A DNA stretch of 64,000 nucleotides, taken from assembly GCF_964213995.1 (NCBI RefSeq), contig NW_027590198.1, forward strand, positions 1 to 64,000. The letters run 5' to 3'. Each line of letters begins with the position of its first letter. Position 1 is the stretch's first letter. The position numbers and the translations under genes are program-made. The notes beneath the pieces were generated by a model. The model saw nothing but the letters and a program-made list of their open reading frames with translations, made no database searches and was not told where the DNA came from. Shown piece after piece: positions 1 through 59,702 of the stretch. The DNA comes from Mustelus asterias (lineage: Eukaryota).

Positions 1-1
1 T

Positions 2-571
2 TCTCAGTGTGGGAAGGGATTCACGAACTCATCCATCCTGCGGACACACGAACGAGTTCACACTGGGGAGAGACCGTTCACCTGCTCTCAGTGTGGGAAG
101 AGATTCACTCAGTCAGCCGACCTGCAGAGACACCAGCTACGTCACACAAGGGAGAGGCCGTTCACCTGCTCTCAGTGTGGGAAGGGATTCATTCTGTTAT
201 CCAGCCTGCGAATACACCAGCGAGTTCACACTGGGGAGAAACCATTCATCTGCTCTCAGTGTGGGAAGGGATTCACTAACTCATCTGATCTGCGGACACA
301 CCAGCGAGTTCACACAGGGGAGAGGCCGTTCACCTGCTCTCAGTGTGGGAAGGGATTCACTCAGTCATCCCACCTGCAGAGACACCAGCGAGTTCACACT
401 GGGGAGAGACCATTCAACTGTTCTCAGTGTGGGAAGGGATTCACTCAGTCATCCAACTTGCAGACACACCAGCGAGTTCACACTGGGGAGAGGCCATTCA
501 CCTGCTCTCAGTGTGGGAAGGGATTCAGAGTTTCATCCCACCTGCTGAGACACCAGCGAGTTCACGAGTGA
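2..571 (+). CDS. C2H2 zinc-finger gene A, 3' part (5' end outside window)
   Basis: Frame starting at base 2 reads [31 protein letters not shown]... with 84-bp TGERPF-linked repeats and ends at TGA 569-571. Confidence 0.85.
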
Positions 572-800
572 TTCCAGAGGTTGGATTCTGCTGTTATTGT
601 TTCTGCTCTCAATTACATCCAGGACTGCATTTTGTTCATTCTCACAGTTGGTCAATGGGGAGGGTCGGAGGGTTTCTTTCTGCTGGACTGGCCGGTCTCA
701 TGACTTTGCCTCCAGTGGGCTGATGCTCTTTGAGTCTTGTTGCGAATACCTGGTTTTTAGATTTCACACGGATCACAGAGTGACAGGGTGTTAGGAAGTT

Positions 801-1070
801 ATAGAGGTTTACAACATGGAAACAGGCCCTTCAGCCCAACTTGTCCATTCCGCTCAGTTTTTACCACTAAGCTAGTCCCAATTGCCCGTATTTTGCCCAT
901 ATCCCTCTATACCCATCTTACCCGTGTAACTGTCTAAATGCTTTTGAAAAGACAGTATTGTACCCACCTCTACCACTGCCTCTGGCAACTCGTTCCAGAC
1001 ACTCACCACGACCTGAGTGAAAAACTGCCCCTCTGGACCCTTTTGTATCTCTCCCCTCTCACTTTAAACC
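801..1070 (-). mobile_element. CR1 LINE 3' end fragment
   Basis: Near copy of the 3' end of the CR1 element at 1665-1950. Confidence 0.75.
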
Positions 1071-1104
1071 TCAAACTAAGAACAAGAAATGTATCGATAA
1101 AATG

Positions 1105-1278
1105 ATTAGAGAACAGAGCCAACATTTTGAGTCTGAATGATACTTCATGAGAGCTGTTATGAAGGGTCATCCATTATCGAAACCTTGGCTCCATTCTTCA
1201 CAGGTGCTGTCAGACCTACTGAGATTTTCCAGCATTTTGTGTTTTTGTTTCAGATTCCGGTATCTGCAGTATTTTACT
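1105..1278. mobile_element. Penelope-like terminal fragment (second family, decayed hammerhead)
   Basis: Similar to 45915-46030, 50250-50330 and 57360-57510 (tgctgtcagacct..tgagattttccagcattt). Confidence 0.5.
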
Positions 1279-1664
1279 CTTCTGATGAAATGATTAGTTC
1301 TGATTGGAATCCCCATGACCCTCCTTCAAAACAGAGGGAGTGGTGGCAGAAGGAGAAAAAGGATCAGGATGATAAAGTCTGGGTTCTGATTCTCCGAGCC
1401 CATGTAGAATTAACAAAATGAGTGAACCAGTTTATAAAGAACAGAAGTTACCCATCCCTAACAAAAACTGAACAAATTAAAATAATTAGGTTGAGGAAGA
1501 GAACAAAAGAATTCATAGATAAAGTTTAAAATCAACTTTGTTTTGTTGTTAGAGAAGTTTTTAAAAATTATGTAAAGTGATGTAACTGTGTGCCAAGTTT
1601 CTTCTCACTCCCCACCCCTTTCGGTTCTGTAGAAAAGTTAACCCTTTCAGCAGACAGTTGATTT

Positions 1665-4370
1665 AGTCATGGAGTCATAGAGGTTTCCAGCTTGGAAACG
1701 GGCCCTTCAGCCCAACTTGTCCATGCCGCCCCTTTTTTAACCCCTGTGCTCATCCCAATTGTCCACGTTTGGCCCATATCCCTCGACACCCATCTTACCC
1801 ATGTAACTGTCTAAACGCTTTTTAAAAGACAAAATTGTACCTGCCTCTACTACTACCTCTGGCACCTTTTTCCAGACACTCACCACCCTCTGTGTGAAAC
1901 AAGTGCCCCTCTGGACCCTTCTGTATCTCTCCCCTCTCACCTTAAACCTATGCCCTCTAGTTTTAGACTCCCCTACCTTTGGGAAAAGATATTGACTATC
2001 TAGCTGATCTATGCCCCTCATTATTTTATAGACCTCTATAAGTTCACCCCTAAGCCTCCTACATTCCAGGGAAAAAAGTCCCAGTCTATCCAGCCTCTCT
2101 TTATAACTCAAATCATCAAGTCCCGGTAGCATCCCAGTAAATCTTTTCTGCAGTCTTTCTAGTTTAATAATATCCTTTCTATCATAGGGTGACCAGAACT
2201 GTACACAGTATTCCAAGTGTGGCCTTACCAATGTCTTGTAAAACTTCAACAAGACATTCCAACTCCTGTATTCAATGTTCTGACCAACATGCAGAATGCC
2301 TTCTTCACCACTCTGTCCACCTGCAACTCCATTTTCAAGGAGCTATGTACCTGTACCCCTAGATTTCTGTTCTGTAACTCTCCCCAACACCCTACCATTA
2401 ACTGAGTAAGTCCTGTCCTGGTTCGATCGCCCAAAATGGATTACCTTGCATTTATCTAAATTAAACTCCATCTGCCATTCGTCAGCCCACTGGCCCAATT
2501 GATCAAGATCGCGCTACAATCCTAGATAGCCTTCTCCACTGTCCACAATGCCACCAACTTTGGTGTCATCTGAAAACTTACTACACATGCCTCCTACATT
2601 CTCATCCAAATCATTAATATAAATGACAAATAACAGTGGACCCAGCACCGATCCTTGAGGCACACCGCTGGTCACAGGCTCCAGTTTGAAAAACAACCTT
2701 CTACAACCACCCTCTGTCTTCTGTCATCAAGCCAATTTTGTATCCATTTGGCTAACTCACCCTGGATTTCATTAGATTTAACCTTAAGCAACAACCTACC
2801 TTGCGGTACCTTGTCAAAGGCCTTGCTAAAGTCCACGTAGACAGCATCACCTGTACTGCCCTGATCTACCTTCTTGGTTACCCCTTCAAAAAACTCAATC
2901 AAATTTGTGAGACATGATTTTCCACTCACAAAGCCATGCTGACCGTCCCTAATCAGTCCTTGTGTCTCCAAATGCCTGTAGATCCTGTCTCTCAAATACC
3001 TTCTGACAACTTACAGATGTGAATCACACCGCCCTTTAGTTCCCAGGCTTTTCCCTGCAGCCCTTTTTAAACAAAGGCTCCACATTTGCCACCCTCCAAT
3101 CTTTAGGCACCTCACCCGTGACTATCGATGATTCAAATATCTCTGCTAGGAGACCCGCAATTTCCTCCCTAGCCTCCCACAGTGTTCTGGGATACACTTC
3201 ATCAGGTCCCGGGGATTTATCTACCTTGATGCGCTTTGTGACTTCCAGCACCTCCTTCTCTGTTATAAGTACACTTCTCAAGACATCACTTTATTTCCCC
3301 AAGTTCCCTAACATCCATGCTTTTCTCAACAATAAATAATGATGAAAAATATTCATTTATGATCTCACCCATCTCTTGTGGATCCGCACATAGATGACCT
3401 TGTTGATCCTTAAGAGGCCCTACTCTCTACCTAGTTACTCTTTGGCACTTTATGTATTTATAGAACCTCTTTGGATTCTCCTTTGCCTTATCTGCCAAAA
3501 CAATCTCGTGTCCCCTTTTTGCCCTCCTGACTTCTCTCTTAATTCTACTCCTACACCCTCGAAACTCTTCAAGGGATCCACTTGATCCCAGCTGCCGATG
3601 CATGTCATGTGCCTCCTTCTTCTTGACGAGGGCTTCAATATCTCGAGTCATCCAGGGTTCCCGACTTCTACCAGCCTTGCCCATCACTCTAAGAGCAATG
3701 TGCTTACCCTGAACCCTGGTTAAAACACTTTTGAAAGCCTCCCACTTACCAGACGTCCCTTTGCCTTCCCACAGACTCCCCCAGTTAACTGTCGAAAGTT
3801 CCTGCCTGATACCATCAACATTGGCCTTTCCCTAATTTAGAATTTTAACTTTTGGACCTGACCAATCATTTTCCATAGGTATCTTAAAACTAATGGAATT
3901 ATGGTCACTGGTCCCAAAGTGATCCCTCACTCACACTTCTATCACCTGCCCTTCCTTATTTCCCAAGAGGAGGTGAACTTTTGCCCCTCTCTAGTCGGGC
4001 CATCCACATACTGAATGAGAAATTCCTCCTGAATACACTCAACAAATTTCTCTCCATCCAAGCCTCTAATACTATGGCTGTCCCAGTCAATGTTGGGAAA
4101 GTTAAAATCCCCGACTATTACCACCCAATTTTTCTTGGAACTATCTGTAATCTCCTTACATATTTGCTCCTCAATTTCCCACCGACTATTTGGGGGCCTA
4201 TAGTACAACCATATCAAAGTGATTTCCCCCTTCTTTCTCAGTTCAACCCTTTTGACTCAGTAGGCGAACCCTCGGATATATCCCCTCTCAGTACTGCCGT
4301 GATGTTTTCCTGAATCAAAAGTGCAACTCCCCCTCCTTTCTTTCCTCCTGTTCTATCTTTCCTCTGGCAT
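1665..4370 (-). mobile_element. CR1 LINE, frameshifted ORF2 (APE endonuclease + reverse transcriptase)
   Basis: ORF pieces with [49 protein letters not shown] and RPHLEYCVQFW in several frames. Confidence 0.9.
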
Positions 4371-5228
4371 CTTGTTTTTAACTTGTTTTTAAATCACCCA
4401 GAAACTCGTGTCTATTTTAGTTTATAATTGTGGATTTATTGGAGCCAGTTAAATGTGGAAATTTTAAGCATACCCTGGAGGAATTTGGAATAACTGAGAA
4501 TTTTATTTTGTTGTCACCTCAACACCAGATAAAGAACAAAGAGTTTGCAGGTGGTAACGTGTTTGGGATTTTAAATTAACAAAGATTAGATGTTGCTGAT
4601 AAAATCAGGCCTTGGAAGTTGGCTTAAAAAGGGTTAAGTTACAATGAAGGATCTTGCATCTTATTTTAATCAAGGAGTTGTGAGCTTGTAGTGCTCTGTC
4701 GCTTTAAGAAGTTATAGCTGCGAGAGAGAATGCTGAGGATTCATTGTTTGAAATTTACAAGCTGTGAGAATCTGTGTGTTTTGTTTGTTTTTGTGTGGAT
4801 GTTTGTAGATGTGTTTTATCATTGTTTTGGGCTACATTTGTTAAGGTTTATCTTTCTGGGGAATTAACCTTACCTTGAGTCTTTAATTAAAGGCATTTTT
4901 GGGAGTTTAAAAACAGAATCAGAAGAATGCTTAAGTAATTAATTTTGGTTATTATTGTAAAGCACATGCTAAGTTTCTCTGTTGGTGTGTGGATGATATT
5001 TGTGGGTTGAACGCTTTAAGCTTTGAGGTTTTTTGTCTGTGATTTAAATCAAACAGATTTTTAAAATGGAAGTGTAATGAATAAAGCTTTTTTTTTCAAA
5101 AGTTATGAACCTGGAGCCATATTTACTGTCCAGAGACAGGATTCCAGGATATTTTACTAAACATGTGGGAATTTTAATCCAGATAAAACTCACTCATGAA
5201 ATTGAGAGTTTTAATTTGTCATGGTTAT

Positions 5229-5805
5229 TGTAAGGGGAAGTTTTCTCACTTCCTACCAGCATGAAAGACAAGCAGACATGAGTACAGTACAAAAAGGCAA
5301 CACAAATTTTATTCTCTGTTTAAAATAACAAAACCGCAGGCCTGGGGAGAGACAGCTGCTCGTCAACTGCTCTGCCTGGCCATTATGCGCTTTACAGTTT
5401 ATAGGGTTTTGAACTTCATGCCAAACATATGGTAATAGGTTCAACATTTACGACAAGTTACATGATCAGTACCAGCTCATAACACAAAGCAGTGGCACAA
5501 TAGCGAGATATTAAAACAGCCATTATAGATAGGTGGAGCTGATCCCATTTCCCCTGGGCTGATCTGTTTCTGGAGGGCTCCCTTTGTGATTTGAGCTTCT
5601 TGCATAATCTAATCAGTTGAGCTATTGTCTGTGTTTCCCTGCTTGGAGTCTAAAGTGATTAAGGCTGTCTGAAGTGATTAGGGGGTGCAAGGAGCCTCTC
5701 CATGAGTCATCGCATTGCTGTGAACTGTTGACAATATTTTAAAATAAATTTGATATACACACGTAAAAATATCCATGATATTAAGCATAAAGGTCGCCCC
5801 CTTCA
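5229..5805 (-). mobile_element. Solo LTR (577 bp)
   Basis: TG...CA ends with inverted termini (TGTAAGGGG / CCCCCTTCA), 5-bp TSD GTTAT at 5224-5228 and 5806-5810, minus-strand TATAAA (5398-5403) followed by AATAAA (5308-5313). Confidence 0.85.
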
Positions 5806-6424
5806 GTTATTTAAAATTTGGTACATATGAAACGATTCTGACCAATCCTGTGTTGGATTGATCTTGGGTTAAACTTCCTGTCAGGTCCAAAGATTTAATC
5901 CTGACACAATTAACACAATGAAAAGGAAAATTCTGGAATTGGATACTGAAGAACAGAGTTTAAAAGGAGAGATTATTAAATAGAAATGTTCCCAGACCGT
6001 GTGGTCATTAGATTGAAACAAAGGAAGGGTGCTGACATCCATTTGAGAATTTTTAATCCACCCCTTTTCAAACTGAGTCTATGTACAAAGAAAACCCCAA
6101 GGATGGTAGACGAGGGGGTCTGGAAAACATCATGATGGGGGCACCTATCTGTCCATGAGATGATCACAAAGCCCCATAATGCCCAGATACTAATTTTATT
6201 GAACCTATAATGTATGTAATCTATCACCATTCTGATTGGATTGTGTCCAGCCGGGATGGGCTGAGTAACTGGATAAGAATTGATGATATTCTTTGTTGGG
6301 TGGAGTTGCACATGGTCAGCCCCTGTGGCTTCTCCCCGCTGGCGTAACTCAATAAACTGTTTGTCGATTGAATCAGGTTTGAGTGTTGAATGATTCTTCT
6401 GAGTTCATTCCCCACAACACACTG

Positions 6425-6575
6425 GGTACATTACCACTTCATCCTCGGGAGTGGCCTGATAGGCCGTGGTCCAGACTACATGTGGACTTTGGGGGGCCTT
6501 TCATGAATCACATGTTTTTGCTTGTTGTAGATGCACATTCAAAATGCTTGGAAGCACAGATCATGAGTAATATTC
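6425..6575 (+). mobile_element. Ty3/Gypsy integrase fragment
   Basis: PLHPREWPDRPWSRLHVDFGGPFMNHMFLLVVDAHSK matches the start of the Gypsy integrase core (PWxRLHxDFAGP...VDAHSKW). Confidence 0.8.
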
Positions 6576-6869
6576 CAGGGCAATTAGGACTAGCTTAGTG
6601 GTAAAAACTGGGCAGCATGGACAAGTTGGGCCGAAAGGCCTGTTTCCATGCTGTAAACCTCTACGACTCTAACTACCTTTTTTGTGGCCTGAAGTTCCCA
6701 CAATTGGAAAGCAGCCAGATTAGTTAAATAGACAGCATTAATTGTGAGACAATTAAATAATAAATGATTCATTAATACATATGTTATAAAGGCTGGAAAT
6801 ATAAATTTGAACACAGGTTTATAGCTTTTAGAATTATAAACACTTTAAGAATGGTTAAAATGCTGTGGG

Positions 6870-7815
6870 AATTATAAGATGTTCCCTTCCCATGCTGACA
6901 GAATAAAGAAAGATGAAAGGACTTGTTAACCTTGACTGGAGGGAATGAATCGGCTCCTGTTCAAGATGTCTCAACATTGAATGACTGATGTGAACCAATT
7001 ATCGGTCAACACTTGGGCTACCCCAAGCTAAGAGATATCGTTTGAGAGAAAGGTATGTCTTAAAATTAAGACAATATGTGCAATTAGCTAAAAACCAAAT
7101 CAATTTCATTATTGACAAGTTATAGACCAATTGGCTAATTCCTAACAATTAGCTGAGGATGGCTTTCTACATTTTGAAAGTATAAAAAAGGGGATTCGAG
7201 AAACCAATCTGGTAGAAGTTTTTAAAAGTTAACTTTTTTTATAGTTTGTTTATTAGTGTCACACATAGACTTACATTAACATTGCAATGAAGTTACTCTG
7301 ATAATCCCCCAGTCGCCACACTCTGGTGCCTGTTTGGGTAAACTGAGGAAGAATTTAGCATGGCCAATGTACCCAACCAGCACGTCTTTCGGACTGTGGG
7401 AGGAAACCGGAGCACCCAGAGGAAACCTGCACAGACACGGGGAGAATGGGCGAACTCCGCACAGCCAGTGACCCAAGCCGGGACTCGAACCCTCTGCTGT
7501 GAGGCAGCAGTGCCTCACACTGTGCCCTACAGAGAGACGTTGAGAGCTGCTGGTTTTACAAGTTATCCACGTTTTCAGAGCCATCACTTCATGTCCTGGT
7601 TTGAGAAGGATGGAGAAGTTGAAGTTAAGCTCTCCTCCTTTTGCTGTTGATCGATACTTTGCTTTTTTATCTTTCTGACTCGTTACATTTTTAATGGTTA
7701 ATAAACTTTCTGAATTCACCATTTAAAGTGTTCTTTCTTGCCATATGATTAAGTCACTGGAACCTGGTGTGATTTACGATTGGGGAGGTTATTGTAAACA
7801 AGAGAACCCTCATAA
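6870..7815 (+). mobile_element. Possible degenerate LTR, interrupted by a SINE
   Basis: CCAAT boxes, TATAAA at about 7181 and AATAAA at 7700-7705 in LTR-like order; no clear TG..CA ends or TSD. Confidence 0.3.
7241..7526 (-). mobile_element. V-SINE (HE1-like), alternative 3' tail
   Basis: tRNA-like head and core TGTCTGxGxGGAGTTxGC...TTTCCTCCCACAGTCC; tail aacttcattgcaatgttaatgtaag...aataaa. Confidence 0.8.
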
Positions 7816-8383
7816 ATCTTAGTTCAAACAAATCAAAGTTCTTATAAATGGAATGCTATCCTTTATTCTGAGAGAAATTGAACATAGAAGTAAAGATGTT
7901 ATGCTTCAGTTGTGCAGGGCGTTGCTGAGATTGCACCTTGAACACAGGGTACAATTTTGTCTCCTATTAAACAAAGGATATAAATACATTGGAAGCAGTT
8001 CAGAGGAGGTTTACAAGATTGATTCCCAATCCAGTAGTGTGAAACATTAACACTGTTTCTCTCTCCACAGATGCTGCAAGACGTGTTGTGTTTTTCCAGT
8101 CCTTTCTGTATTTATTTTAAATCTACCTGTAGTGGTAGGAAAAACACTATTTACTATCCAGGATAAAATAAATGTCCTTCATCAGCTTTTGTGGATCATT
8201 TCAGTGGCAATGTGCTCTCCCAGGCTCAAAGAGCATCAGCGAACTAGAAGCAAAGTCGTGAGACCGGCCAGTCCAGCAGAAAGAAACCCTCCGACCCTCC
8301 CACTTCACCAACTGTCAGAATGAACATGGTTCAGTCCTGGATGTGATTAACAGCAGCAATAAAACAGAATCCAACCCCTGCCA

Positions 8384-8842
<459 letters not shown>

Positions 8843-8856
8843 TCAATTAAATCTCA

Positions 8857-8964
<108 letters not shown>

Positions 8965-9704
8965 TCAGGTGTGTCTGTGTCTTGGTGTATTTCCAGTCAC
9001 ATTTATGTTATAAAAAATTCTGACGCAGACAGAACATTAAAAGATTTCTCCTTCAAGATTGAAAGGCCAATGATATTCGGGTCCCAATCAATCAAATGTC
9101 TGTCAGATGTTGATGTGACGTTTGATTCGAGATTTCTGTCTGTAAATCCCCACCTTCTGATATCCTGCAAAAGGAGATTACAAAATTCATCAGTGTCAGT
9201 ACAGGACAGAAATTCAGAACAGACAATTCTAGTTTCTATGGAACATTCTTTCCTCTCTCATTCCCCAAACACAGTAAATCTCCATCCCACACACTCTCCC
9301 TCAATTCTCACTCTGCTGTATCTAATATTCACCCTCCCAATTCTCCTGAAGGTGCTGATTGAGGCTGATTGACAGATCCATGCTCACGGCTTCCTGTCCT
9401 GGACACAGGGAGCTGAAAATCTCCATGCAGGCTGCCAGACAGATGTCTATAATACTGGATAAAAGTGTAACATACAGGACATTACTTGAGTAGTGGTAGA
9501 GCAGGAATTTGAGGAAGATTTATATTTAGGTAGGGAGAGCACATGATCTAGAACTCGCTGCCTATGAGGATGGTGGAACAGAAGATTCAATCATTTCAAA
9601 ATGAAATTGGATGGGTACTTGAAGGAAATAAAACTTGCAGAGGAATGTTGATAGAGAGAAAGAACAGGATTCTCCAGAGAATCAATCTGCAGTCCATAAG
9701 ATGA

Positions 9705-9857
9705 CGTGGAGATGTCGGCGTTGGACTGGGGTGGGCACACAACACCAGGTTCATCAGGTGAGTGGCCATTCACCTGATGAAGGAGCAGTGCTCCGAAAGC
9801 TCGTGCGATCAAATAAACCTGTTGGACTTTAACCTGGTATTGTGAGACTTCTTACTG
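9705..9857. mobile_element. Penelope-like element terminal remnant (inverted arrangement)
   Basis: gtggagatgtcggcgttggactgggg...acaacaccaggtt, then the opposite-orientation end aataaacctgttggactttaacctgg..gtgagacttcttactgt; same family as 34070-34420, 42262-42690 and 56776-57310. Confidence 0.75.
9771..9805 (+). ncRNA. Minimal type I hammerhead ribozyme motif
   Basis: CAC-CTGATGA-A-GGAGC-agt-GCTCC-GAAA-GC-TC-GTG: conserved core, 5-bp stem II, 3-bp stem I, palindromic AGCT stem III. Confidence 0.7.
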
Positions 9858-9924
9858 TTTATAAGATGTACAGGTTAGGTTGATTGGCCATGCTCAATTG
9901 CCACTTAGTGTCCCAGGATGTGTG

Positions 9925-10125
9925 GGTTGGGGGGGCAATGCTCGGGGGGGGGCAATGCTCGGGGGGGGGCAATGCCCGGGGGGGGCAAAGCCCGGGGGGG
10001 GCAAAGCCCGGGGGGGGGGGCAAAGCCCGGGGGGGGGCAAAGCCCGGGGGGGGGGGCAAAGCCCGGGGGGGGGGGGGGCAAAGCCCAGGGGGGGGGGGCA
10101 AAGCCCAGGGGGGGGGGGGGAGGGA
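9925..10125 (+). repeat. G-rich tandem repeat (G6-13 CAAAGCCC)n, G-quadruplex prone
   Basis: About 10 units of long G runs separated by CAATGCTC / CAAAGCCC / CAAAGCCCA. Confidence 0.9.
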
Positions 10126-11218
10126 CAGAGAGATAGTAAAAGTTTTTACAAATATATAAAAAGGAAAAGAGTAGCTAAAGTAAATGTTGGACCCTTAGTA
10201 GATGAGAAGGGGGATTTAATAATGGGAAACGAGGAAATGGCTGAGGCCTTAAACAAGTTTTTTGTATCAGTCTTCACGGTAGAGGACACAAATAGCTTAC
10301 CGAAAATTGACGGTCATGGGACTGTAGGGGATGAGGTCCTTAAAATGATTACTATTACTAAAGAGGTAGTGCTTGGGAGGCTAATGGGACTAAAGGTAGA
10401 CAAGTCCCCGGGCCCGGATGGAATGCATCCCAGGGGACTGAAAGAAATGGCAGAAGTAATAGAGGATGCGTTGGTTGTAATTTATCAAAATACGCTGGAC
10501 TCTGGGGAAGTGCCGGCTGATTGGAAAACAGCTAATGTGACGCCACTGTTTAAAAAAGGAGGTAGACAAAAGGCGGGTAACTACAGGCCGGTTAGCTTAA
10601 CGTCCGTAGTTGGGAAATTGCTGGAATTCATCATTAAGGAAGAAATAGCAGGACACCTGGAAAAAAATGGTTTGATCAAGCAGACACAGCATGGATTCAT
10701 GAAGGGAAAGTCGTGTTTGACAAATTTACTGGATTTTTATGTTGATGTAACGAGTGCGGTTGACAGAGGGGAACCAGTGGATGTGGTGTTTTTGGATTTC
10801 CAGAAGGCGTTCGATAAGGTGCCTCACAAAAGGTTGCTGCAGAAAATCAGGGTGCACGGAGTTAGGGGTAAAGTGTTAGCGTGGATTGGGGATTGGCTAT
10901 CTAACAGGAAGCAGAGAGTTGGAATAAATGGGTGCTTTTCTGGTTGGCAGTTGGTGACTAGTGGCGTGCCACAGGGATTGGTGCTGGGGCCTCAAGTATT
11001 TACCATATGCATAGACGATCTGGAGGAGGGGACCGAGTGTTGGGTAACAAAGTTTGCGGATGACACAAAGATGAGTGGGAAAGTGAATTGCGTGGAGGAT
11101 GCGGTAAGTCTGCAGAGAGATTTGGATAGGCTAAGTGAGTGGGCGAGGATCTGGCAGATGGAGTATAGCGTTGGTAAGTGTGAGCTTATCCACTTTGGAA
11201 GGAATAATAGTAAAATGG
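10126..11218 (+). mobile_element. CR1 LINE internal RT fragment, truncated at both ends
   Basis: KSFYKYIKRKR...NYRPVSLTSVVGK...DFQKAFDKV...FADDTK; highly similar to 60655-61160 on the opposite strand. Confidence 0.9.
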
Positions 11219-11227
11219 AAGCTGCAA

Positions 11228-11244
11228 TGCTGCCCCCTGTTGTT
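11228..11244 (-). promoter_or_regulatory. Candidate CTCF site downstream of the V RSS
   Basis: Minus strand AACAACAGGGGGCAGCA resembles the CTCF core CCASYAGGKGGCRS. Confidence 0.35.
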
Positions 11245-11418
11245 CACTTCTCCCAGTCTCAGCATTGCAGAGTGTTTAAACAAGAATGGCACATTCAGCA
11301 CCATGGAATGAGAACATTCGGACTAACTCTTCGTTATACAATTGTTCTGTTTGTATTAACAGTTCACAATCCAGGTCACAGATCTGATTCAGTGAGAGGA
11401 GGTGAGAGTGCCTTTGCA

Positions 11419-11457
11419 GGTTTTTGTACGGGCTCACTGCGCCTCTGTAGCAGTGTG
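11419..11457 (-). other. Recombination signal sequence, 23-bp spacer
   Basis: CACACTG (11457-11451) + 23-bp spacer + perfect nonamer ACAAAAACC (11427-11419), directly after the V coding end. Confidence 0.95.
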
Positions 11458-11764
11458 GGGCTCAGCGCACAGTGATACACGGCAGAGTCAGAGACATGGA
11501 CCCCAGTGATATTTAAAGGAACTGTTTTCTTGTCCTTGTCCAAATCAGCAGAAAACCGGTCAGGGAAATCTGGAGACTTTTCTCCGCCCCCCGTGCTATA
11601 TTTCTGCAGTAAATATCTCGGAGCTTCCCCGGGATACTGGATGTACCAGAAGAGATTTGGAAAAGCATCCGTTGTTGTGTAATTACAATTCACTATTACG
11701 TTCAATCCTTCCTGAACCGTTAATTCAGCCGGGTCCTGGGAAACTGAATCTTGGCCATTGATTC
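11458..11764 (-). CDS. T-cell receptor V alpha/delta-type segment, V exon
   Basis: Open IgV domain GINGQDSVSQDPAELTVQEGLNVIVNCNY...LFWYIQYPGEAPRYLL...DRFSADLD...DSAVYHCALSP with both conserved Cys and the Trp; acceptor TTGCAG ends at 11765. Confidence 0.93.
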
Positions 11765-11849
11765 CTGCAACAAAATGTAGAATGTGTGAGAAATCTGTGA
11801 ACAAATATAACCCATGAAACACACACTGAGGATCTGAGCTCAGACTCAC

Positions 11850-11895
11850 CGGGCAGCGTGGTCATTGTTATCAGTAAAGCACACAGGAGATACAT
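11850..11895 (-). CDS. TCR V leader exon (signal peptide)
   Basis: ATG at 11895, MYLLCALLITMTTLP-G, phase-1 donor G|GTGAGT at 11849; the 85-bp intron splices in frame to the V exon. Confidence 0.9.
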
Positions 11896-11899
11896 GGTT

Positions 11900-12060
11900 C
11901 CTGATTGGACAGTAAGCAGCGACAATGTTTACAATAAGTTGCTGCCTCTAGTCTTATATCACAGAGTGAACTCAGATCAGAGGCAGCTTCAAGTATTCAG
12001 AAACAGGGAGGCGTTTCTCAGTGCTGCGATTGGCTCATCTCCCTGAGCTGACGTCAGCTG
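11900..12060 (-). promoter_or_regulatory. V-segment promoter: CRE, CCAAT and TATA-like boxes
   Basis: Palindrome AGCTGACGTCAGCT 12046-12059 (CRE 12049-12056), CCAAT at 12029-12033 and 11903-11907, TATAAG near 11953-11958 on the minus strand. Confidence 0.65.
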
Positions 12061-12065
12061 CGAAT

Positions 12066-12385
12066 CATAAAATCCCTGCAGTGCAGAAGGAGGCCATTCG
12101 CCCCATCGAGTCTATACCGGTCACAATACCACCCAGGCTCCACTCCCGCAACTCCATGTATTTACCCTGCGTATCCCCTGACGCTCGGGTCAATTTAGCA
12201 TGGCCAATCAACCTAACCTGCACATCTTTGGACTGTGGGAGGAAACAGGAGAACCCGAAGGGGACCCACGTAGACACTGGGAGAACATGCAAACTCAGAC
12301 AGAAAGTGATCCGAAGCCGGAATTGAACCCGGGTCCCTGACACTGTGAGACAGCAGCGCTGACCATTGTGGCATCATGCCGCCCC
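12066..12385 (-). mobile_element. V-SINE (HE1-like) with CR1-type tail
   Basis: Head, core and ggcctccttctgcactg tail match the other copies. Confidence 0.85.
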
Positions 12386-12611
12386 GTAACCAGTGAACCA
12401 ATCACTGTTAGTTAATGATTTAATATAGCTGGCACTTTCCAATCACATTCCTTCCCTGGCCGTAAACTTATTTCTAAAGTCTTTGCTCTCTCTCTGCTCT
12501 CTCCCACATCATCACTTATTCTGTCTCATTAACTGGTTAACTCGCTTTCCTCAGAACTCAGTCCATCAATCTTTCTTAAGGCAGATCCTTTTTTCTAATT
12601 TAATCATTTAT

Positions 12612-12914
12612 GGGTGACACGGTGGCGCAGTGGTTCGCATTGTTGCCTCACAGCCCCAGGGACACGGGTTCGATTCCAGCCTCGGGTCACTGTCTCTGTG
12701 GAGTTTGCACTTTCTCACCGTGTCTGCGTGGGTTTCCTCAGGTGCTCCAGTTTCCCTCCACATTCCTAAACTGTGCAGGTTTGCTGGATTGGCCACGCAA
12801 AATTACCCTAAGTGTCAGGGGATAGCAGGGTAAATATGTGGGTTACGGGGATAGGGCCTGGGTGGGATTGTTGTCGGGACAGGCTCCATCCTGCATTGTC
12901 GGGATTCAATGATT
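12612..12914 (+). mobile_element. V-SINE (HE1-like)
   Basis: ggtggcgcagtggttcgc A-box and ggttcgattcc B-box followed by the V-SINE core. Confidence 0.85.
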
Positions 12915-13039
12915 CAGCAGCCTAACGTACAGGGATTAATGAGTAGCATCCAGGACTCAACATAATTAATAGTTAGTGCTGTAAGTATACCGGGGATAAG
13001 TAGTCACTCAACTCTGCACCAGGAAATATTTCACGGACT

Positions 13040-13490
13040 CATAACATAGAAACTAGAAGCAGGAGCCTTCTCCGCCATTCATCGTAATCATAGCTGATCA
13101 TGGAATTCAATATCCTGATCCTCCTTCCCCCTCGACCCCTTTAGCCCCAAGAGCTATATCAAATTTCTTCTTGAAATCAGACAACGTTTTGGCCTCAACT
13201 ACATTCGGTGGTATTGAATTCCATACATTCAACACTCTCTGGATGAAGGAATTTCCCTTCACCTCAGTTTTTCCCTTATCTTCAAAAGATGACCCATGGT
13301 TCTGGATTCCACCATTGGGAACAGTCTTCTGGATCTACCCTGTCGAACCCTGTTAGAATTTTATAAGTTTCTATGAGACCCCCTCTCACTATTCGAAACC
13401 GCAGTGAATATAATCCTAACGGATTTAATCTCTCCTCATATGACAGAGCTGCCATCCCAGGAATCAGCATAGTAAATCTTCACTGTACCC
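13040..13490 (-). mobile_element. CR1 LINE 3' fragment
   Basis: LSYEERLNPLGLYSL...LIETYKIL peptide and a catagaa-type tail. Confidence 0.75.
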
Positions 13491-13884
13491 CTCTATTCCC
13501 CAAATAGAAAAGCTCTGATTTCAATCAGTTATTATTTCTGCTCCACGGACTTGAAAATGGAACAATTCTGAGGCTGCATTTGATAATAGATCACTTTTAA
13601 AATGTGTCGCCGGGCAGATAGGCACCGAATCCAGAATTTTTCTAAGTACAGATTAAGGAAGTTATTCACCCGGGGTAATCTGCAGATTTTGTGCGGATGG
13701 GATCGGAGAATGGTTGGATTTGATCCGGGAATAATAGGATGGCAAATGTGACATTTCACAACACTGACAATGGCTGAGCTCAGTGGGGGAATATTATTCA
13801 GCTGGGGCTGTATTGTGGCCTTCATTTCCTGCGCATTTTCGTTGAGATCCGACTCTTTTTCTCTGACCCTGAAACGTCTGCGTC

Positions 13885-13931
13885 ACTTTTTGTATGAGGC
13901 CCGCGGGAGCCTCATTCACTGTGGGTCTCAG
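13885..13931 (-). pseudogene. Orphan 23-RSS with 8-nt remnant of a V coding end
   Basis: CTGAGACC (13931-13924) + perfect CACAGTG (13923-13917) + 23-bp spacer + ACAAAAAGT (13893-13885); same strand as the intact V, whose end reads CTGAGCCC. Confidence 0.8.
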
Positions 13932-16775
13932 TGGGAATCAAATTGTTGTCTAATTGTCCCAGCAGATAACAGGTTCCTTTGAACTCTCCAGCTGCTACTT
14001 TAATGCAGACTTTAACCAATTTATTTTGAGCTGGTTTCTGTTCAATAAACTGGCACTGACACACAAACACATTAAAATATTTTAGACTTTTCTGCATTTT
14101 CAGTCTGGAAATCTAATCCTGCCATTTCACTCTCAGTCAGGAACAGATCCCAGTTTTGCACCAATCTCTGATTTAGCAGCATGCTTCCAGCATTCACTGT
14201 TGTTCTTCCTGACTCTAAACACAGTTGTAAAGGAACTTCTGTTCCTGGTCTAGGAGCGCTGAAACATAGAAGGGAGTGACTGAGATTCTTGCACATCTCA
14301 GGATTAAACCACACGGGTACTTTGCTGTCGTGAAGAGAGACGAGGAAGAGCAAAGTGCTGTTTGTCCCTCTGTGACCCTGAAGGACTGCGTCCTGTTTGC
14401 CATATGATCCACCCCCGATTGTCTTTTCTGAGCTCCAGCCTGGTGATGTTAAACAGTCAGGTGGGAAAGACAAAAATCTACAACAATTTTAAAAAACAAA
14501 GCTGGTCTATTTCATATTTATTCAGAATATTAAACCTCAACGGATGAAGACTGTCAGAGTGAACACGATTCAGTCCTGGATATGATTAACAGCATCATTA
14601 AGAGTAGAATCCAAACCTTGCAGTCGTTTGTGAACTCGCTGGTGTGTTAGCAGGTGGGATGACTGAATAAATCCCTTTCCACAGACATTACAGGTGAACG
14701 GCCTCTCCCCAGTGTGAACTCGCTGGTGTTTCAGAAGATAAGATAAATGAGAAAATCCCTTCCCACAGACAGAGCAGGTAAGTGGCCTCTCCGCACTGTG
14801 AACTTTCTGGTGTGTCAGCAGGTTGGATGACTGACTGAATCCCTTCCCACACACAGAGCAGGTGAACGGCCTCTCCCCAGTGTGAACTCGCTGGTGATTC
14901 AATAAGTTGGATGAACGAGTGAATCCCTTCCCACAGTCTGAGCAGGTGAAGGGCCTCTCCCCAGTGTGAATTCTCTGGTGGTTCAATAGGGCAGATGGAC
15001 GGCTGAATCCCTTCCCACACACACAGCAGGTGAATGGCCTCTCCCCAGTGTGAGCATATTGGTGCGTTAGCAGATCCTTTTTATTTTTAAAGCTCTTCGC
15101 ACAGTGGGAACAATTAAAAAGTTTGTTATCAGAGTGAACAAGTTGATGTGTCTGCAAGTGGGATGACTGAATGAATCCTTTCCCACACACAGAGCAGGTG
15201 AACGGTCTCTCCCCAGTGTGAATTCGTTGGTGTGTCAGCAGATCCTTTTTGCATTTAAAACTCTTCTCACAGTCAGAACATGTAAACATTCTCTCATCAG
15301 TGTGAACAAGTTGGTGTGTCACAATGTGGGATGAGCGAGTGAATCCCTTCCCACACACAGGGCAGGTGAACGGCCTCTCCCCAGTGTGAACCCGTTGGTG
15401 AGTCAGAAGGTTGTATGAATGGGTGAATCCCTTCCCACAGACGGAGCAGGTGAACGGTCTCTCCCCAGTGTGACTGCGCCGATGAACTTCCAGTTGTGAT
15501 GGGAAACCGAATCCCTTCCCACAATCCACACATTTCCACGGTTTCTCCATGGTGCGGGTGTCCTTGTGTTTCTCCAGGTTGGATGATCAGTTCAAGCCTC
15601 ATCCACACACACAACATACACGTAGTTTCACCCTGCTGTGAACTGTGATGTTTTTTCAGGCTGTGTAACTGGTTCAAGCTCTTTCCACATTCAGTTCACT
15701 GGAACACTCTCACTCGGGTGTGTGTTTGTCTCGATGCTTTTCCGGTCACACTGATGTTTAATTTCTTTGCCCACAGGCAGAACAGACAAATATTTCTCTT
15801 TCCATATTCAAAGACCAATGATATTCAGCTCCGAAGGAACTGAATGACTTTGTCAGATGTGATGTCCGGTTTGAATTTTCTGTCTGCCAATCTTTCACTT
15901 CCAATATCCTGTAAAAACAGTTTAGAAAAGTCATCACTGTCAGAACACGATACAAACTCTGAACAGACAATTCTAGTTCGTCTGGAACATTTTTTCCTCT
16001 CTTGTTCCCCCAAATCTGTAAATCTCCGTCCCACACACTCTCCCTCCTCCCTGGGCTGAAATCCAAACCCATCTCCACCATTTCTTTCCTCCACTCCCAG
16101 TTTTCTCCCTCCCTCTCCTCTGTCTGGGTTCAGTTCTCCAGCTCCTGTCTGCAGACTGACAATAAAACCAATGGGTCTTATTGGGGGTGTTGGGGCCTCC
16201 AGCGGGTGTTTGTGAATCCTCCCCGCCCACCTCCCAGGGTTTCCTTCCTTCCCAGAGATCAGAGTCCTCATTGATTTGAGGCCAAAGTGTAACCTCTTAT
16301 TTATTGTCCCCCTCCCCCATCCTCTGATGTGAACCATCCTCCAGTGGCTGAGCCAGGATGGGGCCGTTAACCTGGGCCTGTTCCCGGGAGGGAGGGAGAA
16401 GCCCCGCAGCTGCAAACCAGGGAGCTGACAATGATTCTGAAGGGTTTGCGGATCCACAAAGTGTTTCCAAATCCTCCCAGCCACCGCCTAACGCTGACTC
16501 CGCTTCTCCGGGACAAACAAGCGCCAAGGACAGCAATGACACTGCGCATGCTCCACATCACAATCTTTGGGCACTGATTGACGGCAGCTCCGGACCAATT
16601 GGAAGAGGGGGCGGGGCGGGAGGACAGAGCGTGGTCGGCTGGTCCTCCAACCAATCGGAGTGAATGAGGGGCGGGACTGGAGAACCGAGCGGGAGCGGCT
16701 GGTCCTCCAACCAATCAGAGTGAATGAGGGGAGCGGCTGGTCCTCCAACCAATCAGAGTGAATGAGGGGCGGGAC
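13932..16775. repeat. Segmental duplication unit (ZNF gene with promoter and 3' UTR), copy 1
   Basis: Colinear, highly similar direct repeat of 52191-55352; homology starts abruptly at TGGGAATCAAATTG (13932 / 52191). Confidence 0.9.
14570..15550 (-). CDS. C2H2 zinc-finger gene C (11 fingers)
   Basis: 326-aa [13 protein letters not shown]... with 11 tandem fingers; Kozak context caccATGG. Confidence 0.9.
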
Positions 16776-51910: not shown

Positions 51911-52824
51911 CACAACTGAGGATCACTGAGAATAATCCAAAATAAGGAGATCACCCAGAAAACTACCAATAGGAATCTTCAGCTGAGCACATCATCCATT
52001 CTTAAAGGGACAGTTGGGGCTTGATGCTGCTCAGTTTCCAGTTAAAGGGACAGGCACAGCTTCACTCTTCTCTCTATTCTGTTTATAATGGTTAAAGGTT
52101 GATAGGAGTGAGGTTTATTTAAAAGGACAGTGTGTGGGAAGCACACAACAAAACTGGGAATTCTTGGACACGCTGCAGCTCCTTTTTATCTGGGAATCAA
52201 ATTGTTGTCTAATTGTCCCAGCAGTTAACAGGGTCCTTTGAACTCTCCAGCTGCTACTTTAATGCAGACTTCAACCAATTTATTTGAAGCCGGTTTCTGT
52301 TCAATAAACTGGCACTGACACAAACACATTAAAATATTTTAGACTTTTCTGCATTTTCAGTCTGGAAATCTAATCCTGCCGTTTCACTCTCAGTCAGGAA
52401 CAGATCCCAGTTTTGCGCCAATCTCTAATTTAGCAGCACGCTTCCAGCATTCACTGTTGTTCTTCCTGACTCTAAACACAGTTGTAAAGGAACTTCTGTT
52501 CCTGGTCTAGGAGCGCTGAAACATGGAAGGGAGCGACTGAGGTTCTTGCACATCTCAGAATTAAACCATATGGATACTTTGCTGTCGTGAAGAGAGATGA
52601 GGAAGACCAACGTGCTGTTTGTCCCTCTCTGTGACCCTGAAGGACTGCGTCCTGTTTGCCATATGATCCTCCCCCCATTGTCCTTTCTGAGCTCCAGCCT
52701 GGTGATGTGGGGTCAGGTGGGAAAGACAAAAATCTACAACAATTTTAAAAAACAAAGCTGGTATATTTCATATTTATTCAGAATATTAAACCTAACGGAT
52801 GAAGACTGTCAGAGTGAACACGAT

Positions 52825-53973
52825 TCAGACCTGGATATGATTAACAGCATCAAGAAGAGTAGAATCCAAACCTTGCAGTCGTTTGTGAACTCGCCGGTGT
52901 GTTAGCAGGTGGGATGACTGAATAAATCCCTTTCCACAGACATTACAGGTGAACGGCCTCTCCCCAGTGTGAACTCGCTGGTGTTTCAGAAGATCAGATA
53001 AATGAGAAAATCCCTTCCCACAGACAGAGCAGGTAAATGGCCTCTCCCCACTGTGAACTCTCTGATGTGTCAGCAGGTTGGATGACTGACTGAATCCCTT
53101 CCCACACGTGGAGCAGGTGAATGGCCTCTCCTCACTGTGAACTCGCTGGTGATTCAATAGGTTGGATGAACGAGTGAATCCTTTCCCACACACGGAGCAA
53201 GTGAATGGCCTCTCCTCACTGTGAACCTGCTGGTGTGTCAGGAGGTTGTATGAACGGGTGAATCTCTTCCCACATTCAGAGCAGGTGAACGGTCGATCCC
53301 CTGTATGGAGCTGCTGGTGTATCAGAAGATTGGATGAATTAATGAATCCCTTCCCACAGTCGGAGCAGGTGAAGGGTCTCTCCCCAGTGTGAATTCTCTG
53401 GTGGTTCAATAGGGCAGATGGACGGCTGAATCCCTTCCCACACACACAGCAGGTGAATGGCCTCTCCCCATTGTGAGTATATTGGTGCATTAGCAGATCC
53501 TTTTTATTTTTAAAGCTCTTCTCACAGTGGGAACAATTAAAAAGTTTGTCATCAGAGTGAACAAGTTGATGTGTCTGCAAGTGGGATGACTGAATGAATT
53601 CTTTCCCACACACAGAGCAGGTGAACGGTCTCTCCCCAGTGTGAATTCGTTGGTGTGTCAGCAGATCTTTTTTGCATTTAAAACTCTTCCCACAGTCAGA
53701 ACATGTAAACGGTTTCTCATCAGTGTGAACAAGTTGGTGTGTCACAATGTGGGATGAGCGAGTGAATCCCTTCCCACACACAGGGCAGGTGAACGGCCTC
53801 TCCCCAGTGTGAACCCGTTGGTGAGTCAGAAGATTGTATGAATGGGTGAATCCCTTCCCACAGACGGAGCAGGTGAACGGTCCCTCCCCAGTGTGACTGC
53901 GCCGATGATCTTCCAATTGTGATGGGAAACCGAATCCCTTCCCACAATCCACACATTCCCACGGTTTCTCCAT
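52825..53973 (-). CDS. C2H2 zinc-finger gene G (13 fingers), paralog of gene C
   Basis: 382-aa [13 protein letters not shown]..., nearly identical to gene C apart from two extra fingers. Confidence 0.9.
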
Positions 53974-54557
53974 GGTGCTGGTGTCCTTGTGCTTCTCCAG
54001 GTTGGATGATCAGTTAAAGCCTGGTCCGCACACACAACATGCATACCATTTCACCCTGCTGCGAAAAGTGTGATGTTTTTTCAGGCTGTGTAACTGGTTA
54101 AAAATCTTTCCACATTCAGTTCACTGGAACACTCTCACTCGGGTGTGTGTTTGTCCCGATGCTTTTCCGGTCACACTGATGTTAAATTTCTTTGCCCACA
54201 GGCAGAACAGACAAATATTTCTCCTTCCACATTCAAAGACCGATGATATTCAGCTCCTAAGGAACTGAATGACTTTGTCAGATGTGATGTCCGGTTTGAG
54301 TTTTCTGTCTGCCGTTCCTTCACTTCGAATATCCTGTAAAAAACATTTAGAAAAGTCATCACACTCAGAACAGGATAGAAATTCTGAACAATTCCAGTTT
54401 CTCTGGAACATTTTTTCCTTTCTTGTTCCCCCAAATCTGTAAATCCCCGTCCCACACTCTCTCCCTCCTCCCTGGGCTGAAATCCAAACCCATCTCCACC
54501 ATTTCTTTCCTCCACTCCCAGTTTTCTCCCTCCCTCTCCTCTGTCTGGGTTCAGTTC

Positions 54558-54756
54558 ATGATGTGGTATTAAGGCTTGATTAGCTGTAAGTATTCGCATT
54601 CCAACCATTATTCTGTAAATTGAGTTTGTGTCTTTATGTACCCTGTTCGTGAACAGAATTCCCACTCACCTGAAGGTGCTTAAGGCTCCGAAAGCTTGTG
54701 GCTTTTGCGACCAAATAAACCTGTTGTACTTTAACCTGGTGTTGTTAAACTTCTTA
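54558..54756 (+). mobile_element. Penelope-like terminal fragment inserted with a 13-bp direct repeat
   Basis: CTGGGTTCAGTTC at 54545-54557 and 54757-54769; single copy at the empty paralogous site 16124-16136. Confidence 0.85.
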
Positions 54757-55149
54757 CTGGGTTCAGTTCTCCAGCTGCTGTCTGCAGACTGACAATAAAA
54801 CCAATGGGTCTTATTGGGGGTGTTGGGGCCTCCAGCGGGTGTTTGTGAATCCTCCCCGCCCACCTCCCAGGGTTTCCTTCCTTCCCAGAGATCAGAGTCC
54901 TCATTGATTTGAGGCCAAAGTGTAACCTCTTATTTATTGTCCCCCTCCCCCATCCTCTGATGTGAACCATCCTCCAGTGGCTGAGCCTGGGCCTGTTCCC
55001 GGGAGGGAGGGAGAAGCCCCGCAGCTGCAAACCAGGGAGCTGACAATGATTCTGAAGGGTTTGCGGATCCACAAAGTGTTTCCAAATCCTCCCAGACACC
55101 GCCTAACGCTGACTCCGCTTCTCCGGGACAAACAAGCGCCAAGGCCAGC

Positions 55150-55635
55150 AATGACACTGCGCATGCTCCACATCACAATGCCCGGGAACTGATTGACGGC
55201 GGCTCCGGACCAATAGGAAGAGGGGGCGGGACTGGAGGACCGAGCGGGAAAGCGGCTGGTCCTCCAGCCAATCGGAGTGAATGAGGGGCGGGGCTGGAGG
55301 ACCGAGCGGGAGCGGCTGGTCCTCCAAGCAATCGGAGTGAATGAGGGGCGGGACCTGAAGCATGCGCAGTGCGGGTAATGGCGACGGACGGACGGTTTCA
55401 ACTCGGAAGCGAGATCAATACGAGGTAGAGGGCGGCGCGCGGGGAATGATAAATGTGGCGGGTGGGTGGAGAGGTTTCGTAAACATGTTGTTCAAACCCA
55501 AACCCCGGAAATGAACTTCCCGGTCCCCCACTTTGTACCAAATGGAGCGGCAGCTTGTGGTGTTAGACCCGGGCTGACTGCCGCCATTGAGGCTGCATGT
55601 GGGAGGCCGGCAGGGATTGTGATCGGAGAGTGAAG
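55150..55635. promoter_or_regulatory. CpG-rich, probably bidirectional ZNF promoter
   Basis: NRF1-like sites at about 55157 and 55360 flanking CCAAT/GC-box units; ETS-like CCGGAA and a YY1-like GCCGCCAT further right. Confidence 0.6.
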
Positions 55636-58832: not shown

Positions 58833-59702
58833 ATGGAAGGAAAAAGCACTATTCACAGTGGGGAGAAACCGTACACGGGTTCTGTGTGTGGACGAGGCTT
58901 CAGCCGATCCTCTGGCCTGTCAAAACGTAAGTGCAGTCACTCCATGGAAAAACTGTGGAAATGTGTGAACTGTGGGAAGGAATTTAATTCCCCATCCCAG
59001 CTGGAAACTCATCAGCGCAGTCACACTGGGGAGAGGCCGTTCACCTGCTCTGAGTGTGGGAAGGGATTCACTCAGTCATCCCACCTACTTACTCATCAGC
59101 GAGTTCACACGTTTGAGAGACCTTTTAAATGCTCAGACTGTGGGAAGTGCTTCAAAAGTTCTTGGGAACTGATGTCCCATCAACGTGTTCACACTGATGA
59201 GAGACCATTCAGGTGCTCCCACTGTGGGACTGGGTTCCAGCATTCACATAACCTCACTGTACACCAGCGAATTCACACTGGGGAGAGACCATTCACCTGC
59301 TCCTACTGTGGGAAGGGATTCACTCGGTCATCCCACCTATTGACACACCAGCGAGTTCACACCGGGGAGAGACCTTTTAAATGCTCTGACTGTGAGAAGT
59401 GCTATAAAAGTTCTGGTGAACTGACTTCCCATCAACGTGTTCACACTGATGAGAGACCGTTCAGGTGCTCTCACTGTGGGACTGGGTTCAGGCGATCATA
59501 TGATCTCATTCTACACCAGCGCACCCACACTGGGGAAAAGCCATTCACCTGCTCTGAATGTGGGAAGGGATTCATTCAGTCCTCCACCCTGCTGAGACAC
59601 AAGCGAGCTCACACTGGGGAGAGGCCATTCAGCTGCTCTGAGAGTGGGAAGAGATTCACTCGGTCATCCTACCTGCTTAGACACCAAAGAATTCACGAGT
59701 AA
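58833..59702 (+). CDS. C2H2 zinc-finger gene H (8 intact fingers plus degenerate terminal ones)
   Basis: [17 protein letters not shown]...[10 protein letters not shown]...; AATAAA at about 59814. Confidence 0.88.

Follow-up and report, generated by a model that had tools for sequence, protein, structure and literature searches.

The window, by which we mean the whole 64,000-nucleotide stretch that was analysed (C166:1-64000, the start of a 773-kb contig), contains on its minus strand a single V segment with a split leader, an open V exon and a 23-RSS, and C2H2 zinc-finger (ZNF) arrays lie on both sides of it (Table 1), as an earlier note on this DNA had reported. The leader exon, the 85-bp phase-1 GT-AG intron and the open IgV exon ending YHCALSP that the note had described are all confirmed, as is the 23-RSS with its perfect nonamer; the note had left unmentioned that the heptamer, CACACTG, carries one mismatch. 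The mismatch is not a defect of the window copy: the same heptamer is found in 10 of 10 copies of the segment in the V arrays described below. CACACTG is the commonest V heptamer in the loci that we fetched (41 of 86), which are biased toward the family of the window V.

Table 1. Positions of features in the window, with strand where one is assigned
Feature	Position	Strand	Remarks
C2H2 zinc-finger array	8384-8842	-	downstream of the window V
Leader exon	11895-11850	-	46 nt, phase 1, ATG at 11895
Leader intron	11849-11765	-	85 nt, GT..AG ends
TCR alpha/delta V exon	11764-11458	-	open; C-terminal YHCALS(P)
23-RSS	11457-11419	-	heptamer CACACTG 11457-11451, 23-nt spacer, nonamer ACAAAAACC 11427-11419
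TATA-like motif	11958-11953	-	upstream of the window V, promoter-like
CCAAT motif	12033-12029	-	upstream of the window V, promoter-like
CRE-type motif	12056-12049	-	TGACGTCA; upstream of the window V, promoter-like
Upstream-V remnant	13933-13885	-	last 10 nt of coding sequence (13933-13924) and 23-RSS (13923-13885)
V-array-derived piece	10417..13933		2.7-3.5 kb; 92-94% identical to dense V-array contigs
Junction of ZNF 3' flank and V-array DNA	13932-13933		2-nt microhomology; 3' border of the upstream V's embedded heptamer
C2H2 zinc-finger array	14570-15586	-	3' flank fused to the V piece
Shared duplication block	1..16677		at least 16.7 kb; 97-99.9% identical to other copies

A Pfam V-set domain is recognized in the segment (E value 6.8e-17), and the Ig domain has its Cys, Trp and Cys104 all present and stops ahead of the G strand. 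When both strands of the 64 kb were scanned for RSSs with at most three mismatches, three sites were returned; since there are only three and the top-scoring one abuts the V exon, we do not regard the RSS as a chance match. An RSS-like site at 58860, which sits within a ZNF reading frame, was dismissed. Upstream of the leader are three promoter-like motifs, which we take to be of CRE, CCAAT and TATA type and which all 9 aligned array copies retain. A pair of oppositely oriented SINE-like repeats (12060-12390 and 12610-12890) lies upstream of this promoter-like region and is shared with the array copies. Neither tblastn nor a V profile built here found another V in the window, bearing out the description of the segment as the sole complete V in 64 kb, and no J-like motif was found there, as the note had also observed. 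A contig of run X1, whose status as RNA is our guess, skips exactly the 85-nt leader intron. The X1 and X2 contigs are homologues from another organism with many differences, and cover the leader and V exon only; a V-J joint was sought in them and none was seen. The word "recombination-competent", which the earlier note had applied, holds for the frame, splice sites and RSS, all of them intact, and does not extend to use.

With respect to identity, the best match of the window V among solved structures (PDB) is a TCR alpha domain, its single-V matches are mostly TCR alpha, and among rearranged proteins P0002 (V-J-C-alpha, 58% identity) and P0003 (V-J-C-delta, 59% identity) come closest. Together with the 23-nt spacer, these alpha and delta chains agree with the proposed TRAV/TRDV identity, and judged from its sequence the segment is an intact TCR alpha/delta V, a class assignment made from closest matches. 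The best matches might, as the note had allowed, have been to non-rearranging IgSF genes, and UrIg/UrIg2-like genes do occupy the same antigen-receptor complex according to PMC12227049. We consider the chance that the window V is such a gene to be negligible, given that its exon ends after Cys104 at a 23-RSS without a J or G strand and that rearranged TCR chains are its nearest proteins; a UrIg/UrIg2 VJ gene, having VJ in one exon and no RSS, is refuted by the RSS and the absent G strand.

Origin of the V piece and its junction with the zinc-finger flank

A second set of contigs carries dense V arrays (101 V matches in the 318 kb fetched) that include copies of the window V at 92-95% identity. 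The window from 10417 or 11283 to 13933 aligns in one piece to nine of ten dense-array stretches and in parts to the tenth, and in four of them the alignment reaches the entire span from 10417 to 13933 or nearly so. The arrays have, 2.4 kb upstream of the counterpart of the window V, a whole V that belongs to a different family; of this upstream V the window has only the last 10 nt and the 23-RSS, a second 23-RSS that the earlier note had overlooked. The lower boundary of the piece lies within a LINE, presumably CR1-like, and as the array copy of this LINE is the shorter and the window copy the longer, the comparison suggests that the boundary arose by exchange between LINE copies.

From these alignments and from the copies described below we conclude that the window V comes from a dense V array, of which it is a displaced fragment that was amplified recently. 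The array piece would have been captured once, likely in a single DNA break-and-join event next to a ZNF 3' flank, with microhomology end-joining sealing the upper junction and a LINE-LINE exchange producing the lower boundary; the ZNF-rich antigen-receptor complex would have duplicated the block afterwards, and the V piece likely spread as a passenger of these segmental duplications.

At the upper junction, 27 of the 40 ZNF-side matches that we scored end at 13932, and the other 13 cross the junction and are the amplified copies themselves. The fused ZNF gene (13932-16731) has an unfused paralogue elsewhere in the window (52191-55348, 88-96% identical in parts), and its 3' flank is shared by at least 27 further genome matches. 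On the V side, the upstream V ends in eight array stretches with TACTGTG, 10 nt and then the RSS. The window retains exactly those 10 nt and nothing of the embedded heptamer TACTGTG, and the break in the upstream V coincides with the 3' border of this heptamer, with a 2-nt ambiguity through microhomology.

This position raises the possibility that RAG, cutting at the embedded heptamer in the germline, made the junction, a proposal that concerns origin only and fits either view on use. We judge it unlikely, although several observations speak for it. The 10 nt kept at the heptamer border resemble a V-replacement footprint. In VH replacement (PMC3526766, PMC3906580) the 3' cryptic signal is a TACTGTG that lacks a conserved nonamer, and there, too, the 3' border of the embedded heptamer is where the break occurs, with a short V-end footprint left behind. 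The window junction differs from VH replacement as set out there in being germline, in lying in a TCR V, in having as its partner a ZNF flank without an RSS, and in being a single junction. RAG-like joining in shark germ cells has been reported for Ig genes (PMC2193156), and a rough estimate, assuming that each V offers about 12 positions compatible with RAG and that a V occurs every 3.1 kb (101 V in 318 kb), puts the chance of such a coincidence at about 0.4% per junction.

On the other hand, the idea is post hoc, and across the roughly 19 ends that we inspected the chance rises to near 7%. The event appears to be single: a genome-wide pattern search for the junction footprint, which specifies the exact offset and misses trimmed ends and other types of V end, recovered the same 13 copies only, and among 142 RSS-like sites in the fetched loci this is the only V-end remnant without its V. 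None of 17 other ends of island/array alignments lies at a heptamer border, a weak test in that many of these ends, which were chosen visually among the better alignments for 7 of the 17 island stretches, are repeat insertions. On the ZNF side, none of the 17 paralogues has a CAC heptamer at the break, so that the partner end is not RSS-defined, and there are no non-templated bases at the junction. Even without RAG, a break could occur in the short inverted repeat that the embedded heptamer makes with the true one, and VH footprints are frequently chance products (PMC3906580). All the same, a RAG cut explains the position of the junction better than a random break does, and we count this against the reading that we favour below.

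The thirteen copies and their divergence

The protein sequence of the window V occurs at 100% identity in 13 places on 13 contigs. For ten of these the comparison with the window covers up to 3.3 kb, flanking repeats included, and gives 99.1-99.9% identity; in the flanks of the shared block the copies are 97-99.8% alike. The shared block extends to window position 16072 in the copy on scaffold C71, and in other copies it runs on past the start of the window. Twelve of the 13 copies keep the ATG, splice sites, frame and RSS; the copy on C89 has ACG in place of the ATG. Because the 13 copies differ by 0.1-3% and their similarity ends at different points, we read most of them as true paralogues and not as one locus assembled repeatedly, and a few pairs that are 99.2-99.8% identical could be alleles.

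That the copies, or the ZNF junction, are artefacts of assembly we hold to be very improbable. In its favour, most copies are on unplaced contigs and some of the most similar pairs may be allelic; against it stand the differing ends of the flanks and the divergence of up to 3%, a contig of run X3 that crosses the junction without mismatch (with 30 letters on one side, one below our bridging rule, and from a run that may be the assembled sample itself), and pieces in samples S3, S4 and S5 that are identical to the window at lineage-specific positions.

We counted those lineage-specific changes relative to nine aligned array copies, and all p values given are uncorrected. The upstream non-coding DNA has 54 changes in 1774 positions, and the leader and V exon taken together, with 8 in 353, do not differ from it (Fisher p 0.49). 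The leader by itself is high (5 in 46, p 0.015; positions 11891, 11889, 11888, 11867 and 11862), all five changes falling in residue-changing codons, and the V exon is low (3 in 307, p 0.037; positions 11695, 11589 and 11505); the intron has one change, and the RSS and the downstream flank have none. We count the low figures for the V exon, intron, RSS and downstream flank against the view that the V piece is carried along passively, and they could reflect selection or gene conversion with array copies. Overall, the counts appear compatible with drift, selection or gene conversion, without deciding among them.

Most other scattered V matches in the genome (L083-L099) belong to islands that contain V of either orientation at a density of 2-5 per 10 kb, many of them with stops, and the single-V island of the window is an exception among them. 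A lone 86% copy of the window V at C24:38,776,882-38,777,145 (L098), on a 63-Mb scaffold and with no V neighbour within 10 kb, is a candidate true orphon. In a V paralogue at L086:5102 (C104, about 1,379,100), an insert, presumably a retrocopy of ribosomal protein L13a, interrupts the V exon where it begins.

TCR constant regions and the use of the copies

The window's own contig, which is unplaced, carries IgM constant exons at 185-187 kb with an IgM-type secretory tail, further IgH constant exons at 455-457 kb, and other V islands at 202-208 and 387-393 kb. The earlier note had proposed looking for a TCR J and C on the scaffold; no C-alpha, C-delta or TCR TM exon was found on the 773-kb contig, and the J scan of it covered the window and three 10-kb stretches. 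Only two of the 13 contigs with copies, C71 and C154, have a match to a TCR constant region.

For the genome at large, Pfam DUF1968 gave no match and the constant part of P0002 was used instead as the C-alpha query; for C-delta, a short query on the fetched loci was unclear and the longer constant region of P0013 succeeded. The labels C-alpha and C-delta are assigned from genome context: the P0002-type constant exon follows long J arrays without a D-like segment, and the exon of P0003/P0013 type follows D and J segments and also terminates double-V NARTCR-type proteins (the NCBI label of P0013 is "alpha-like"). On this basis there are two C-alpha exons, 76% alike in DNA and each with an open TM exon. 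Ahead of the C-alpha on C546 (138-242 kb) come 128 J segments, together with ZNF arrays and 10 V; that on C71 (at 18.42 Mb in a cluster at 18.37-18.43 Mb) is preceded by 32 J segments and ZNF arrays, and its TM exon lies 12 kb downstream, with none within 10.8 kb. The ZNF arrays are directly upstream of both J-alpha clusters. No D-like segment was found in C546 or in C71:18.28-18.43 Mb, no C-delta in the fetched stretches of the two clusters, and no V in the 90 kb ahead of the first C71 J segment.

C-delta exons number 19 in the genome, each matched by a TM exon, and the six that we compared are 97-99.97% alike. All three C-delta units examined contain J-delta and D-like segments: those on C71 (7.10-7.18 Mb) and C181 (280-330 kb) have a decayed IgH-like V, a D and 3-4 J-delta, and that on C436 (190-260 kb) has a NARTCR-type V, a D and a supporting V-delta. 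The C71 scaffold contains a copy of the window V together with C-alpha and three C-delta. The copy is at 15.16 Mb on the plus strand, 3.2 Mb upstream of the J-alpha/C-alpha cluster and co-oriented with it in the scaffold as assembled, an arrangement that makes a deletional join geometrically possible.

No rearranged transcript of the window V was seen, and as no run on record as RNA carries the segment, this result is neutral on expression. Use of a copy would involve RAG recombination between its 23-RSS and the 12-RSS of a J-alpha or D-delta located in another part of the complex, and the C71 copy could join a J-alpha by a 3.2-Mb deletion. On a less likely view, the copies function within a dispersed TCR alpha/delta locus: a single chromosome region would contain V islands, ZNF genes, IgH clusters, many D-J-C-delta units and two J-C-alpha clusters, and V segments such as these would recombine over megabases like any other. 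In favour of this view, the C71 copy is co-oriented with, and 3.2 Mb upstream of, 32 J and a C-alpha with an open TM exon; each J-alpha cluster has ZNF arrays upstream; on C436, a J-delta follows a 93% array paralogue at a distance of 21 kb and C-delta follows it at 31 kb; members of the family appear in rearranged V-J-C-alpha (58%) and V-J-C-delta (59%) proteins; and the V exon is relatively conserved. Against it, the 90 kb that lead up to the first J segment on C71 contain no V, and use there needs a long range. The C-delta units of C71 and C154 share the orientation of the copy but lie on its upstream side, a geometry in which the coding joint would end up on an excised circle, and 11 of the 13 contigs are without a TCR constant match.

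We favour, with some confidence though well short of certainty, the reading in which the window V is a displaced and amplified passenger from a V array, lodged at a ZNF flank in 13 near-identical copies and used rarely if at all. The copies are probably rarely used, and we count their intact promoter motifs and RSS against this; the unplaced copies may adjoin a usable partner, given the 19 C-delta units and two J-alpha clusters in the same compartment. The earlier note had left the choice between an orphon and a TCR alpha/delta locus whose V segments are diluted among ZNF genes. At the scale of the genome such dilution holds, given the ZNF arrays that directly precede the two J-alpha clusters, but the window V itself is a displaced array fragment. 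A further and rather doubtful combination is that a germline RAG cut at the cryptic heptamer of a shark TCR V led to the fusion of V-array DNA with a ZNF gene, and that the product, amplified 13-fold in a multi-cluster complex, can feed the repertoire.

Scattered V segments in sharks and beyond

Mammalian Ig and TCR orphons are intact or near-intact V segments carried on segmental duplications away from D, J and C. The shark copies differ from them in remaining inside the antigen-receptor complex, one sharing its scaffold with a co-oriented J-alpha cluster. In elasmobranchs, PMC12227049 describes a complex in which IgM, IgW, IgNAR and TCR alpha/delta occur together and alpha/delta V exons are situated between IgH clusters; its Table S1 gives dispersed alpha/delta V exons over about 9 Mb in the white shark and widely spaced ones in the epaulette shark and stingray. 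The window V, away from J and C on a contig with IgM exons, resembles these and is itself a dispersed alpha/delta V segment of this kind. As far as the available main text of PMC12227049 goes, it mentions neither zinc-finger genes nor orphons and gives no breakpoints; in the genome analysed here, a single V piece is amplified 13-fold. Table S1 has one TCR-alpha constant model per species, in contrast to the 2 C-alpha and 19 C-delta exons found here. Shark V families common to alpha and delta chains are described in PMC5931798, and the window V, with its split leader, 23-RSS and 58-59% identity to the V domains of P0002 and P0003, is like them. In the open papers we found nothing on shark TCR V interspersed with ZNF genes or on many C-delta copies, on which the supplement of PMC12227049 may bear, and no description of the 13-fold V block.

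The window V itself is ordinary, and the dispersal of alpha/delta V segments has already been published (PMC12227049). What the analysis adds is an account, at the level of single bases, of how a shark alpha/delta V came to be scattered, as a piece of array fused to a ZNF gene and copied by segmental duplication. The lineage-specific bases of the leader make the use of a scattered V directly testable in thymus reads. The presence of 2 C-alpha and 19 C-delta exons is a departure from the single-translocon picture and is worth separate study. Were the junction indeed the product of a germline RAG cut, the reported activity of RAG in the shark germline would extend from the joining of Ig genes to translocation-like gene fusions, and the recombinase would have rearranged non-receptor genes in inherited DNA.
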